A stretch of DNA of 32,000 bases, from positions 2,562,651-2,594,650 of the forward strand of contig CP113000.1 in assembly GCA_026625185.1 (NCBI GenBank), given 5' to 3'. Position numbers and translations under genes: made by a program. Source of the DNA: Thermodesulfobacteriota bacterium (GTDB lineage Bacteria; Desulfobacterota; WTBG01; JAGOGO01). The notes below the pieces were generated by a model. It was not told the DNA's origin, searched no databases, and saw nothing but the letters and a program-made list of their open reading frames with translations. Every line of letters begins with the position of its first letter. Position 1 is the first letter of the stretch. Positions 15,995 through 29,240 of this stretch are shown one piece after another.

Positions 15995-16942
15995 TTATTT
16001 GAAGTCTTTATTATATTCCATATCAAACCACATGGCAAAAAGAAGGGTCTGCATTCCTGAGATAAACAAAAACCAAAACAACAAATGGGAGGTTGGAGGA
16101 ACTACACCACTCGTATAGTAACCATAAAATGTCCGGCAGAGAAAGATAAAACTAAGGGGAAGGGTAGTAAAAGAGAGAGAATAAAAAAGAACCAGGGGGT
16201 GGAAGTCTTTGATCACGTATTTGATAAAAAGACGTTTAAAAAACCCGCGGAAAAGAAGTCGGCTTATCGTGGGAATTACTTTCCAGAGCCGAATACCTGA
16301 TTTTTCACCTATATTGTAAACCGGCCGAATGCTAACATCCCGTGCGCGGCAGTTTTCAATGTTTAGTTTTATAAGAATATCATTGGGTACACCGTATTTT
16401 TTATAGATATTGTCTAAATCAAGGAGGTTAAGAGCTTTAAGCGAAATAGCAGTATATCCGCATTGAGAATCGGCAATATGCCAATAACCGGAGGCAATTT
16501 TGGTGAGAAAGGAGAGAAGCGAGTTGCCTAAATATCTATAATGGGGGATCATGTCCCAGGATTCTCCTCGGAAAAGGCGGTTGCCCTTGCTGTAATCAAC
16601 TCCACTACTTACGACCGGGTCAATGATATCCGGAAGATCAAGAGGGTCCATTTGTGCGTCACCCGCCATAACTACGGTCACATCTATTTTTAGCTCTTTA
16701 GCTCGTTTATAACCGGTAATAATAGCTCCACCGACCCCCTGGTTTTTTTGGTGCGTTATTATTTCGAGATAAGAGTGGTGTTTTTTTTCATTATCTAAAA
16801 CCATAAGAGTATTGTCGGTGCTCGCATCATTGACAACAATGATGCGGTCAATAAAATCGGGCATAGTATCAATGACTCGGACGATTAACTTTTCTTCATT
16901 ATGCGCTGGAACTACTACTCCGATGGTTTTGCCTTTATACAT
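15995..16942 (-). CDS. GT2 glycosyltransferase with C-terminal TM helices (GtrB/ArnC/DPM1-like polyprenyl-phosphate sugar synthase candidate)
   Basis: IGVVVPAHNEEKLIVRVIDTMPDFIDRIIVVNDASTDNT, a DxD-type VVMAGDAQMDP, and two C-terminal hydrophobic helices. I moved the start to the ATG at 16942 (MYKGKTIG...), which has GAGGGA 8 nt upstream. The track TTG at 16975 has no SD. Confidence 0.75.
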   Translation of the reverse strand: MYKGKTIGVVVPAHNEEKLIVRVIDTMPDFIDRIIVVNDASTDNTLMVLDNEKKHHSYLEIITHQKNQGVGGAIITGYKRAKELKIDVTVVMAGDAQMDPLDLPDIIDPVVSSGVDYSKGNRLFRGESWDMIPHYRYLGNSLLSFLTKIASGYWHIADSQCGYTAISLKALNLLDLDNIYKKYGVPNDILIKLNIENCRARDVSIRPVYNIGEKSGIRLWKVIPTISRLLFRGFFKRLFIKYVIKDFHPLVLFYSLSFTTLPLSFIFLCRTFYGYYTSGVVPPTSHLLFWFLFISGMQTLLFAMWFDMEYNKDFK

Positions 16943-16979
16943 AAGATTTTCCCTCGCACTTTTCTGGTGATTCAACTTT

Positions 16980-17227
16980 AGTGAACGACATAATAAAAAG
17001 GCATTCTTTTTTTGCCATGCTATAATATATCGCTATTGTCATTCCGGGCTTGACCGAGCCTGCCCCTTACAGATACGGTGGAATTCAGGGGCAGGTGTAA
17101 GAAGTAACTCAGTTTCATTGCTTCATAAGCCACCCCTCTGGATTACCGCTTTCGCGGGAATGACGCTGAGGAAATTGGGGCGGAATAAGAGAATATCTTA
17201 AATATCAACTTATTTATGTCGTTCACT
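16980..17227. repeat. Nested-palindrome intergenic element (MITE/REP-like or structured RNA)
   Basis: The outer inverted repeat is a perfect 14 bp: AGTGAACGACATAA (16980-16993) / TTATGTCGTTCACT (17214-17227). The middle inverted repeat is GTCATTCC (17038-17045) / GGAATGAC (17157-17164). The inner hairpin is a perfect 9 bp, CCTGCCCCT (17059-17067) / AGGGGCAGG (17087-17095). ATTACC-GCTTTCGC-GGGAAT lies at 17142-17161. No ORF is present. Confidence 0.6.
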
Positions 17228-17244
17228 TTAATTTTTAGGTTAAA

Positions 17245-27224: not shown

Positions 27225-27248
27225 ACAGTTGCCTTCGTGATTAAAGAA

Positions 27249-28886
27249 TTATTTTTTTTGGTTTTCATTCACTTCAAGCATCGTTAACGCTTTTTCAAGG
27301 TTTTTCATCGCTCCGGGGTCATTAGGTTTTATTTTAAGGGCTTCTTGAAAATGGATTATTGCTTCCTTGAGGTTTCCTTGGCGAGCAAGCACAACCCCAA
27401 GATTATTATGAGCTTCTTTCATGGTGAGATTGTAACTGAGTGCGCTATAATAATTTTTAACAGCCTCATTCAGATTATTTTGCTTTAGGAATAGATTAGC
27501 AAGGTTATAATATCCGTCACTATATCGAGGATTAATTTTGAGCGCTTCCTGGTAATGCCGCCTTGCTTCTTCAATGTGATGGCGTTCAACTAAAGCATCT
27601 GCTAAAATATCGTGAGCAACAAAATTATTTTTTGTTACGTTGATAGCATGTCGAGATAACGTAATGCTATTTTGCCACGTTTTAATTTGCGCCCATGTCA
27701 TCTTGGTCAAACCAAAAATTACTACCAAAGGGATCAAATAAAACACTATTTTTCGAACCCTTCCTTCTGCCCAAAAAAGAGAGAACCCCCATGAAATAAT
27801 TATAAATAGACCAATGAGAGGGATATAAGTGTACCGGTCGGCTCTTGCCTGCATCCCTATTTGCACTAATCCAATTACTGGAATAAGAGTTCCAATATAC
27901 CACCACCAACCAACAAAAAAAAATGGATAACGCTTAACGGCTTTGATGCTGAAAAAAGATATGAGACCAAGAACCAGACAAGCTGCAGCAACTTCCCATT
28001 TTTCTATTATTTTTTGATAAGGGTAAAAGAAAGCAAGATCATGAGGCCAGATTGTTTTTTCAATATACATTGAAAAGGAAATCAAAGCGTTGGTGATTCT
28101 AAGTCCTATGGGATATTTGCTTAAAGGAGCTATGGCGTTTCCACTTTGCTGGGAAAAAACCGCTACCAGTCCGGCTACTGCTGCTATCAGTAAAAACGGT
28201 ATTTTTTCAAAAACTAAGGTGGTGGTAAAAAACTTTTTTCTTAGATCATTGGCGGTATCTCCTTCCTTTTTCATGCGAAACCGACAAAGCGGCCAATAAT
28301 CAATCAATAACAACACAAAAGGCAAGGTAATGATCATGGATTTTGCCATGAGACCAAGGATAAATAAAAAAAGAGTCAGCAGATAGCGCTTGCTTTCAGG
28401 ATGATTAACATACCAAAGGTAACTCAACATCGTCCATAAGCAGAAAAAAGTACTCAATACGTCTTTACGTTCTGAAATCCATGCTACTGATTCTACATGA
28501 AGAGGGTGGAGGACAAAAAGAGCAGCAACAAAACCGCTTTGCCATAATTTGCCCGTCGTCTTTCGAAGTACAATAAACAATAAAAGGCTGTTTGCGATAT
28601 GAAAAAGAACATTTGTTAAATGGTGTTTCCCGGCATTCATATCAAAAAAATGGCAGTCCACCATGTGCGATATCCAAGTCAGTGGATGCCAATTGCCGGT
28701 GCTCATATCTGTGGAAGACCATTTTAAACCATTAAGTGTCAAGCCTGCTTGAACGTAAGGATTATTCGTGATGTACTGTGAGTCGTCATAGTTGAGAAAT
28801 TCAAAATTTCTTACCGGTGAATAAACCAAGGACGTAATAATGATAAGAGATAAACAAATCAAAATATTCTGATGCTTACTGGTCAT
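27249..28886 (-). CDS. TMTC-like (DUF1736-type) GT-C glycosyltransferase with C-terminal TPR repeats
   Basis: 545 aa. The first-loop motif FEFLNYDDSQYITNNPYVQAGL...GNWHPLTWISHM matches bacterial TMTC/DUF1736-type proteins as I recall them. It has about 10 TM helices. The C-terminus holds TPRs (RHYQEALKINPRYSDGYYNLANLFLKQNNLNEAVKNYYSAL..., HFQEALKIKPNDPGAMKNLEKAL). Confidence 0.7.
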   Translation of the reverse strand: MTSKHQNILICLSLIIITSLVYSPVRNFEFLNYDDSQYITNNPYVQAGLTLNGLKWSSTDMSTGNWHPLTWISHMVDCHFFDMNAGKHHLTNVLFHIANSLLLFIVLRKTTGKLWQSGFVAALFVLHPLHVESVAWISERKDVLSTFFCLWTMLSYLWYVNHPESKRYLLTLFLFILGLMAKSMIITLPFVLLLIDYWPLCRFRMKKEGDTANDLRKKFFTTTLVFEKIPFLLIAAVAGLVAVFSQQSGNAIAPLSKYPIGLRITNALISFSMYIEKTIWPHDLAFFYPYQKIIEKWEVAAACLVLGLISFFSIKAVKRYPFFFVGWWWYIGTLIPVIGLVQIGMQARADRYTYIPLIGLFIIISWGFSLFWAEGRVRKIVFYLIPLVVIFGLTKMTWAQIKTWQNSITLSRHAINVTKNNFVAHDILADALVERHHIEEARRHYQEALKINPRYSDGYYNLANLFLKQNNLNEAVKNYYSALSYNLTMKEAHNNLGVVLARQGNLKEAIIHFQEALKIKPNDPGAMKNLEKALTMLEVNENQKK

Positions 28887-28943
28887 GTTCGTTTGATTTT
28901 CAGGTAGCAGGGATGTTTGGATTATTAAAATTATAAATACTGT

Positions 28944-29240
28944 TTACCTATTTTTAAGGATTTTAGTTTTTCTTACATATAGAGTTGCAATTTCATCACG
29001 ATAGACCAGAATCCAATCTGGGCTATGGAAGAAAGCGCGATGAATCATCGGAAATCGGTAGCTATGCAATAGTAAGGTATTTACATTGTAACGATCAAGG
29101 ATTTCTTCCCATCTTGGCTCAGCCCGCTTGACCTTTCCATAAACACCTTCAGTAAACCACTCGGGGAAACATGTCCTGCCATCAATAAATACAAGACGCT
29201 TTGGGTAAAAATGGTAGATAAAAGTTCCTCCGAAAAACAT
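28944..29240 (-). pseudogene. Remnant of a GT-C glycosyltransferase C-terminal (periplasmic) domain, lacking the TM/catalytic part
   Basis: The 98-aa ORF (open 26 codons further upstream to an in-frame TGA) reads FIDGRTCFPEWF...WEEILDRYNVNTLLLHS...SPDWILVYRDEIATLYVRK. This follows the pattern seen at the extreme C-terminus of ArnT/PMT_2-like proteins, including the 657-aa ORF in this window. There is no SD and no membrane domain upstream, since the MFS gene ends at 29375. Confidence 0.35.

Follow-up and report, generated by a model that had tools for sequence, protein, structure and literature searches.

The stretch analyzed here comprises 32,000 nucleotides from the genome of a Thermodesulfobacteriota bacterium (assembly GCA_026625185.1, contig CP113000.1, positions 2,562,651 to 2,594,650; hereafter the window), and carries a type IV pilin gene, pilA, directly followed by the gene of a membrane glycosyltransferase of the GT-C class related to human TMEM260. 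Two further GT-C genes and two GT2-family glycosyltransferase genes lie close by; we number the GT-C enzymes by coordinate, so that the TMEM260-like enzyme is GT-C2. On balance, the core of this locus is probably a pilin-accessory O-glycosylation cassette, which would work in the manner of Pseudomonas aeruginosa TfpW but with a GT-C enzyme of a different family. Because a pilin gene directly adjoins the TMEM260-like gene in 57 of 70 related loci across phyla, gene context strongly supports the pilin as the predicted acceptor of this enzyme.

A TMEM260-like glycosyltransferase encoded beside pilA

By sequence, GT-C2 (19257..21374, minus strand) is a secure member of the TMEM260/DUF2723 family and a proposed pilin O-glycosyltransferase. 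It matches Pfam PF11028 over residues 38-195 with 127.3 bits (cut-off 24.2; E = 7.5e-37), contains some 10-11 hydrophobic segments up to residue 387, and ends in a periplasmic C-terminal domain in which tetratricopeptide repeat (TPR) families are matched at about residues 560-700. The human TMEM260 structure (PDB 9rql) matches the first ~250 residues with E = 1e-21, and Asp38 of GT-C2 is aligned without a gap to chain residue 52 of that structure; the TMEM260 paper proposed Asp52 as the catalytic residue of the human enzyme. Asp38 lies in the loop-1 motif YWRDAGEF (D-A-G-E), and D38, E41, H53 and P54 are invariant in 38 homologues with identities down to 22%. A later conserved motif reads Y-L-Y-L-P-x-R-S...P-x-x-D-W-G-N-P. 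The first-pass annotation of the window, which had described this reading frame as a DUF2723/TMEM260-like GT-C with TPRs, is borne out by these matches. A public Joint Genome Institute (JGI) gene call for GT-C2 is only 661 residues long, with a start 44 codons downstream of the TTG at 21374 (also L083:977-2962; the prefix L denotes a surveyed locus). This shorter call drops the loop-1 Asp38 motif, and homologues of 705 residues back the TTG start.

Residue conservation bears on whether GT-C2 is an enzyme at all, since the TMEM260-like protein could instead be a non-catalytic factor for pilus assembly or stability, a TPR scaffold like PilF/PilW/Tgl or of the TfpY type. Some pilin accessory proteins do aid assembly without modifying the pilin, JGI names relatives of GT-C3 'PilF/TadD' and TMEM260-like relatives 'tetratricopeptide (TPR) repeat protein', and the TPR part has NCBIfam PilW and Tgl matches below their cut-offs. 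We nevertheless give a scaffold very little credence. A purely structural TPR role is unlikely because the active-site motif is invariant: homologues down to 22% identity retain the acidic motif of loop 1 together with many residues of the membrane domain, the putative catalytic Asp is aligned with that of TMEM260, and a dedicated lipid-sugar synthase is co-conserved with the gene.

The neighboring pilA (21478..21867, minus strand) encodes a short type IVa major pilin, with matches above cut-off to both N_methyl (37.9 bits) and Pilin_PilA (32.1 bits, cut-off 28.5), and with pilS and pilR near by. The protein carries the class III signal G|FTLIE and, when mature, has 118 residues and zero cysteines. 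The spacer between pilA and GT-C2 measures 103 nt; the adjacency had been recognized before, with an offset of 104 bp that is corrected here. Within the spacer lies an intrinsic terminator-like hairpin (21420..21443, minus strand), with a 10-bp stem containing 6 GC pairs followed by TTTTTTT, which separates pilA from the accessory genes. Terminator-like hairpins were found in 34 of 52 related pilA-to-GT-C spacers, versus 4 of 52 shuffled ones. Pseudomonas pilin-accessory cassettes share this order of pilin, terminator and accessory gene, and there the terminator is thought to damp accessory-gene expression; the layout in the window, pilA then terminator then GT-C, is alike.

Upstream of pilA we noted a weak sigma-54 promoter-like GG-N10-GC element (21933..21948, minus strand; CGGTACACAATTTGCT) with 2 mismatches to the consensus. 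It was rejected as evidence, as the window holds 10 such matches and 11.8 are expected by chance. Separately, mature PilA satisfies the published sequence heuristics for 'conductive' e-pilins: aromatic residues and histidine (F/W/Y/H) make up 11.0% of the protein, the longest aromatic-free gap is 22 residues, and aromatics occur at positions 1, 24, 27, 50, 51 and 57.

Conservation of the pilin neighborhood

To place the locus among its relatives, one genome per species was scanned for GT-C2 homologs, which yielded 541 relatives; the best 79 loci were taken with 10-kb flanks, and the window proteins were searched against all open reading frames (ORFs) of those loci. Pilins were counted in those 70 loci in which the GT-C2 relative has 600 bp or more of upstream sequence. 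A pilin gene adjoins directly in 57 of them: in 51 a pilA-like ORF precedes the GT-C on the same strand at a distance of no more than 600 bp, in 3 the pilins come just downstream of a tandem GT-C array, and in 3 they lie between two GT-C paralogs. If an estimated ~1% of the genes in a genome are pilin-like, adjacency by chance is expected at about 1%. The related loci span eight or more phylum-level lineages, among them Desulfobacterota, Nitrospirota, Nitrospinota, Zixibacteria, Ignavibacteria, Binatia, Poribacteria and Abyssobacteria, and the pilA/GT-C adjacency persists across phyla whereas the other neighbors change. An ortholog of the membrane-anchored GT2 of the window (~400 bits) adjoins the GT-C2 relative in 33 of 64 loci and lies within 5.5 kb in 40 of 64. 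The first-pass annotation had suggested looking for co-location with pilA and GT2 genes in related genomes, and both are found there.

Pilins encoded next to the GT-C are small proteins (median mature length 115 residues) whose C-terminal halves are rich in Ser/Thr (25-30%). Some loci contain tandem arrays of four to six pilin genes (L078:3929-11938, L030:5690-7102, L051 and L075), and the pilins of L078, L051 and L075 are bracketed by two TMEM260-like paralogs. In Nitrospirota/Thermodesulfobacteriota relatives, genes for a GT4 and an AsnB-like amidotransferase come after the pilA/GT-C/GT2 trio (L011:13061-21286, L027:13129-16233); the Nitrospirota locus L011 goes on with a second GT4, a MurJ/MATE-like flippase and methyltransferases. 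These added genes point to a glycan of greater complexity or to a polysaccharide pathway linked with the cassette.

Candidate sugar-lipid synthases and flippases, and the ArnT-fold enzyme

All previously listed ORFs are present at their coordinates on the minus strand, and a single minus-strand neighborhood spans 12870-31995, from pilR down to a PilGHI-like ATP-binding cassette (ABC) transporter set. Its order is pilR, an MFS/ATG22-like transporter, a 98-residue fragment, GT-C3, a soluble GT2 and pilS, followed by pilA, GT-C2, GT-C1, a membrane-anchored GT2 and the four-gene ABC set; a GT4 gene and the gene of a 310-residue polytopic protein lie on the plus strand between pilS and pilA. The pilS (24448-26139), pilR (30817-31995) and ABC (12870-16038) genes had been left out of the earlier description. 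The closest relative found, contig ORM2_100487 of JGI sample 3300001388 (L001; ~82% protein identity), has the same gene order except that it has an extra 235-residue gene and lacks the 98-residue fragment. The extra gene (L001:2779-3486), which has no Pfam match, occupies the position of a 332-bp gap that separates pilS from the soluble GT2 in the window (26140-26471). In JGI data the window is represented by a metagenome contig (3300040744).

Two candidate polyprenyl-phosphate sugar synthases accompany the GT-C enzymes. The membrane-anchored GT2 (15995..16975, minus strand; 315 residues from the ATG at 16942) is of DPM1/GtrB/ArnC type, matches PF00535 with 70 bits and has C-terminal hydrophobic helices at 261-279 and 298-316. 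Its best PDB match is the dolichyl-phosphate-mannose (Dol-P-Man) synthase 5mlz (E = 1.8e-12), and ArnC (9hwj) matches too. The soluble GT2 (26472..27224, minus strand), putatively paired with GT-C3, matches PF00535 with 87 bits, has no hydrophobic helix, and likewise resembles Dol-P-Man synthase 5mlz (E = 7e-9, with most of the sequence aligned), ArnC being found further down among its PDB matches. Two GT2s, one anchored and one soluble, had been read from the sequence at 15995-16942 and 26472-27224, in agreement with these results. For both proteins the NCBIfam equivalogs AglJ, PpgS, Dol-P-hexose transferase and ArnC score far below their cut-offs, the first three being the best such matches of the soluble GT2, and no curated model fixes the sugar or the lipid.

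Two candidates could move a lipid-linked sugar across the membrane. The 310-residue protein (23503..24435, plus strand) has ~8-9 hydrophobic segments and is possibly UPF0104/LPG_synthase_TM-like. It is without a Pfam or NCBIfam match, PF03706 being undetected even at E<=10, and one ortholog (L023:7028-8074) reaches 29.7 bits against PF03706, below the cut-off of 33.4. Of its former description as a UPF0104 flippase-like protein, the polytopic character is retained and the family label finds weak support in that ortholog. The second candidate is the PilGHI-like cassette (12870..16038, minus strand), which encodes a 255-residue single-pass protein, an ABC ATPase (ABC_tran), an ABC-2 permease (ABC2_membrane_2) and a 222-residue TPR membrane protein. 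The complete set accompanies the pilin cassette again in L005, L009, L010, L025 and L027, and three of its genes, without the 222-residue protein, occur in changed order in L079. This ABC set could be the missing flippase or exporter.

GT-C1 (17245..19218, minus strand) is an ArnT-fold, PMT_2/GT39-like enzyme with a C-terminal alpha/beta periplasmic domain. Its own sequence stays below the Pfam thresholds for PMT_2 (24.0 bits, cut-off 26.1) and PMT (16.8 bits, cut-off 22.7). Homologs are named GT39 or ArnT-like and carry precomputed matches, of unstated strength, to PF13231 (PMT_2), PF02366 (PMT) and PF26626 (DUF8201). The structural model (mean predicted local distance difference test score, pLDDT, 91.3) contains a GT-C fold and the periplasmic C-terminal domain, and its best Foldseek match is ArnT (5f15; E = 3e-7, TM-scores 0.50/0.59), with STT3, AglB, PglB, ALG12, AftA and Pmt4 among the further top matches. 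The model and the homologs thus uphold the earlier PMT_2/ArnT-like assignment as to fold, while the protein's own PMT_2 score falls short. HHalign relates the GT-C1 family profile to the TMEM260-like family with 95.7% probability, and the two enzymes are encoded together in L004, L009, L023, L024, L056 and L079. The acceptor of GT-C1 could be a lipid or a glycan.

A second TPR-bearing enzyme, GT-C3

GT-C3 (27249..28886, minus strand) combines a membrane domain of ~11 transmembrane (TM) helices with C-terminal TPRs at ~residues 420-535, and the helix pattern of its model (pLDDT 81) fits this 11-TM-plus-TPR arrangement. It had been labeled TMTC/DUF1736-like. According to Eisenhaber et al., TMTC proteins share seven motifs, including SHKSYRP, RxD, KE(T/Q)xxT, DW, PxxP and ERxxY. 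All TMTCs match DUF1736, the TM7-TM8 loop, at E<1e-30. By eye, GT-C3 has the motifs DD, RKD (RxD) and DRYxY ((D/E)RxxY), with WHPL and K..T as partial counterparts; DW, which belongs to the DUF1736 loop, and PxxP were not found. DUF1736 is unmatched in GT-C3 even at E<=10, as it is in 10 family members, and that half of the label was dropped; the TPRs and the DD motif stand. The membrane part of GT-C3 has no Pfam match, PF13231 included. PMT_2 is matched by 7 of 10 close homologs (best E = 3e-10), and the homolog in L081 passes the cut-off with 32.6 bits. Residues D35, H67, R140, K182, D350 and R351 do not vary within the family, while D34 and D142 are almost invariant. Sequence comparison therefore justifies describing GT-C3 as a probable TPR-bearing GT-C of the PMT_2 superfamily with a TMTC-like layout. 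A system assembled from bacterial homologs of the non-canonical eukaryotic O-mannosyltransferases, as first envisaged, is consequently too broad a description: one of the three GT-C enzymes, GT-C2, is demonstrably of that kind.

Several other comparisons of GT-C3 were uninformative. A PDB search with the membrane part returned nothing, whether run with the single sequence or with a 10-sequence profile. The top 50 Foldseek matches were all TPR proteins and say nothing on the membrane domain, and profile alignments to the other two GT-C families were collinear at 2-7% HHalign probability, unusable as evidence.

The surroundings of GT-C3 relatives were surveyed in 80 metagenomic loci, 61 of which served for counting pilins directly upstream. 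Relatives stand in tandem arrays in 19 of 80 loci, and an ortholog of the soluble GT2 lies within 3 kb in 8 of 80. In four loci (L085:1600-11037, L133:9321-17056, L121 and L138) a pilin is followed by one to three GT-C3-type TPR enzymes, and none of the four contains a TMEM260-like gene. The gene ahead of the pilin is pilR in L085, and in L133 the pair pilS-pilR stands there; in both loci a GT-C1-like gene comes afterwards. A soluble GT2 follows in L085 and lies on the opposite strand in L138. The order of pilin, TPR GT-C and GT-C1-like gene in L085 and L133 mirrors the core cassette of the window.

Pilin, surface glycan or general protein acceptors

The first-pass annotation had envisaged periplasmic protein O-glycosylation with pilin as substrate. 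For the TMEM260-like gene this prediction is backed by the pilin context described above, and a role in polysaccharide synthesis is the main rival. In this alternative, the GT-C and GT2 genes would build or modify a surface glycan, such as lipopolysaccharide, capsule or a Xap-like exopolysaccharide, and the link to pilA would reflect co-regulation of pilus and matrix. A number of observations weigh against pilin modification, and several of them lend themselves to the polysaccharide alternative. The Geobacter genes after pilA (xapA-H, GSU1498-1508) are described as an anchoring polysaccharide cluster in which the ABC ATPase xapD is required, and a similar ABC cassette recurs here. GT4, AsnB-like, MurJ/MATE-like and methyltransferase genes, as found in related loci, are typical of polysaccharide synthesis. 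TPR domains are found in polysaccharide export machinery too. GtrA, ArnEF and MATE flippase families have no match in the window, which leaves the proposed pathway without a confident flippase. Some 13 of the 70 related loci lack an adjacent pilin; these are mostly the most distant ones, from Margulisbacteria, Firestonebacteria, Armatimonadota and Hydrogenedentota. A search for acceptor Ser/Thr positions in 55 adjacent pilins found just moderately conserved columns. Ser/Thr does occur among the last three residues in 39 of these 55 pilins, versus 25 expected from whole-protein composition, but this excess was rejected as evidence, since ~34 are expected from the composition of the C-terminal half. 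Lastly, pilins are rare beside GT-C3 relatives: one lies directly upstream in 3 of 61 loci, and 6 of 80 have one within 3 kb.

The surface-glycan alternative also draws on the ArnT fold of GT-C1, ArnT being a lipid A modifier, and on the fact that three-component GT2/flippase/GT-C systems usually decorate glycans. It is harder to reconcile with the way in which the pilA-to-GT-C adjacency outlasts all other neighbors across phyla, and with a pilin-terminator-accessory layout that matches known pilin-modifying cassettes. Moreover, the characterized eukaryotic TMEM260 acts on protein, TfpW has the same architecture and position and glycosylates pilin, and neither a polymerase nor a chain-length regulator nor an outer-membrane exporter was found in the window. 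We therefore regard surface-glycan synthesis as unlikely.

A different alternative is that the TPR-bearing GT-C enzymes serve general periplasmic protein O-glycosylation with many envelope substrates, the pilin being one of them or a mere neighbor. Family sizes are in keeping with a broad role. The GT-C3 family has at least 8000 database matches (those listed share at least about 50% identity), and its members are often in tandem and mostly away from pilins. The membrane part of GT-C2 has relatives in 13,835 clusters at 50% identity (E<=1e-3; 590 clusters at E<=1e-30), far above the pilin-linked subset, and eukaryotic TMTC and PMT enzymes serve many clients. Set against this, the pilin adjacency of the nearest TMEM260-like subfamily is too regular, and the known general bacterial O-glycosylation systems rely on Wzy_C-type oligosaccharyltransferases. 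We hold a general system to be quite improbable for the locus as a whole; it suits GT-C3 better than GT-C2. As a side note on family breadth, GT-C2 relatives include archaeal members (one unclassified archaeon and one Woesearchaeota metagenome-assembled genome), and these, together with the cluster number, mean that the family extends far outside the bacterial members linked to pilins. A 582-residue family representative was considered as Geobacter XapA and rejected, the protein being archaeal.

Proposed mechanism and implications

What the analysis establishes are domain identities, conservation of the catalytic residue, gene order and conservation of the terminator; from these sequence features we infer an enzyme activity, a donor sugar, a flippase, an acceptor and an acceptor site. 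In the pilin-glycosylation pathway that we favor, the membrane-anchored GT2 would act at the cytoplasmic membrane face, where it would use a nucleotide sugar to charge polyprenyl phosphate with a monosaccharide. The lipid-linked sugar would then be flipped, with the UPF0104-like 310-residue protein and the PilGHI-like ABC-2 transporter as candidate flippases. The TMEM260-like enzyme, acting through Asp38 in its first periplasmic loop, would transfer the sugar to a pilin Ser/Thr in the folded globular part of the membrane-anchored pilin, before assembly, and its TPR domain may dock or select the folded pilin. Read-through of the terminator would keep the enzyme level low relative to that of the pilin. 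GT-C1 may add or extend a second sugar, or act on another acceptor. GT-C3 and the soluble GT2 would form a second module, whose acceptor may or may not be pilin.

More tentatively, and with rather less than even confidence, we suggest a generalization: bacterial TMEM260/DUF2723 TPR proteins may be dedicated pilin O-glycosyltransferases that, in eight or more phylum-level lineages, have been inherited jointly with pilA and a lipid-phosphate-sugar synthase. They would then constitute a second, much wider pilin-modifying GT-C family beside TfpW, and the metazoan enzyme for folded IPT domains would have descended from such enzymes, whose acceptors would be folded proteins of the bacterial periplasm. 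TMEM260 is a human disease gene, and the partnership with pilA gives its bacterial relatives a concrete, testable substrate. If the proposal holds, environmental phyla such as Desulfobacterota, Nitrospirota and Nitrospinota would join Pseudomonas, Neisseria and related bacteria, in which pilin glycosylation is chiefly known. Phage attack on pili is influenced by pilin glycans, and adhesion might be as well; here such glycans would decorate a pilin that fits published 'conductive pilin' criteria. The cassette would also provide an uncomplicated bacterial system in which to see how GT-C enzymes with TPRs select folded protein acceptors.

Other genes in the window

A pilR-like sigma-54 response regulator (30817..31995, minus strand), whose N-terminus lies beyond the window end, matches Sigma54_activat with 241 bits, part of Response_reg, and HTH_8; pilR orthologs lie upstream of pilA in many related loci. 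The pilS-like sensor histidine kinase (24448..26139, minus strand) matches 6TM_PilS (79 bits), PAS, HisKA and HATPase_c. Between pilR and GT-C3, an MFS/ATG22-like transporter (29375..30670, minus strand; ATG22 234 bits, and MFS_1) keeps its position in L001, L009 and L084. The plus-strand GT4 (22261..23436), a cytoplasmic glycosyltransferase of GT-B type that matches Glycos_transf_1 (97 bits) and Glyco_transf_4, confirms the GT4 reported earlier between the two glycosyltransferase groups; its orthologs (180-209 bits) come after the GT2 in L011-L027.

The 98-residue ORF (28944..29240, minus strand) is a C-terminal part of a ~500-residue polytopic family. One member, L034:8791-10362, has ~11 hydrophobic segments, and its residues 412-500 match the fragment at 35% identity (E = 1e-13). 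It had been taken for the decayed C-terminus of a fourth GT-C. The fragment is indeed C-terminal and its family is polytopic, and the GT-C label is unproven, neither the fragment nor its ~500-residue, ~10-TM family having a Pfam match. The family has an N-terminal D-x-W-x-H-L motif, and in two distant loci (L034:8791-10362 and L041:12038-13525) it adjoins a TMEM260-like or a pilin gene.

Elsewhere in the window, a plus-strand cluster (1117-6346) holds genes for an acyl-CoA dehydrogenase, EtfB and EtfA, together with those for an FeS/CCG-domain oxidoreductase and a small biotin-lipoyl protein. It resembles an electron-transfer module with which anaerobes oxidize fatty or aromatic acids. At 8021-10581, a minus-strand HAD-type phosphatase is divergent from a GT2 with a weak mannosylglycerate-synthase-like match, and the two may be a compatible-solute pair. 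The 402-residue ORF at 10619-11827 has no family match.

Comparison with known systems

TfpW of P. aeruginosa (group IV) is the closest functional precedent by analogy for the GT-C2 cassette. This GT-C enzyme has 11 TM helices, carries TPRs in a C-terminal domain and is encoded immediately behind pilA; arabinosylation of pilin Ser/Thr from a polyprenyl-phosphate sugar requires it. The first-pass annotation had named TfpW but not its TPR domain, which gives the GT-C2 architecture a close precedent. Like TfpW, GT-C2 is encoded directly downstream of pilA after a terminator. TfpW is characterized by DDX in loop 1 and YX6PFX7P in loop 4, whereas GT-C2 has neither, carrying D-A-G-E and matching the TMEM260 model. 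The TfpW donor stems from a D-arabinofuranose (D-Araf) pathway, whereas none of the window ORFs scanned resembles the pathway enzymes DprE1, DprE2 or the phosphoribosyltransferase, and the donor here would come from the DPM1/ArnC-like GT2. TfpW occurs in Gamma- and Betaproteobacteria, as opposed to the Desulfobacterota, Nitrospirota and Nitrospinota considered here. Because the published TfpW motifs and the D-Araf pathway are missing, we keep GT-C2 apart from TfpW, the two having been compared by description.

Human TMEM260 is a protein O-mannosyltransferase of the endoplasmic reticulum (ER) that uses Dol-P-Man and modifies folded IPT domains of cMET, RON and plexin. GT-C2 shares with it the Pfam family, the aligned Asp, and the combination of a GT-C membrane domain with a TPR-containing, non-cytoplasmic C-terminal domain. 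The sequence alignment between them is confined to the N-terminal third, and the human protein is eukaryotic and ER-resident. Metazoan TMTC1-4 (GT105) resemble GT-C3 in the 11-TM-plus-TPR layout, the loop-1 DD, R-x-D and (D/E)R-x-x-Y; they have DUF1736 and a loop-4 DW, both absent from GT-C3, in which SHKSYRP is partly recognizable, the comparison being one of published motifs.

The GtrA/GtrB/GtrC, ArnC/ArnEF/ArnT and actinobacterial Ppm1/Pmt systems likewise place a C-terminally TM-anchored GT2 beside GT-Cs on the same strand, and share the logic of a lipid-phosphate monosaccharide donor. The acceptors of GtrABC and Arn are O-antigen or lipid A, whereas the proposed acceptor here is pilin, the GT-Cs bear TPRs, and no GtrA/ArnEF-type flippase was found. 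Genes directly downstream of pilA are also known from Geobacter sulfurreducens xap, which comprises a 582-residue membrane protein (xapA), an ABC ATPase (xapD), an ABC-2 permease and glycosyltransferases, and from Myxococcus xanthus pilGHI, an ABC transporter homolog needed for pili; xapC/xapD and pilGHI resemble the set at 12870-16038. PilO/TfpO and PglL modify type IV pilins in the periplasm as well, and tfpO is also encoded just after pilA. These enzymes are of Wzy_C type and use undecaprenyl-diphosphate oligosaccharide donors; they are not GT-Cs and have no TPR domain.

In the literature searched, no paper describes a bacterial DUF2723 function and none combines TMEM260 and pilin; the TMEM260 study, the one paper there in which the term DUF2723 occurs, mentions just 'distant homologs in bacteria', in line with the first-pass view that the bacterial functions are undescribed. 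A pilA-adjacent TPR GT-C is not in itself new, given TfpW; what is new is the family to which this one belongs, its breadth across phyla, and the co-conserved donor synthase.

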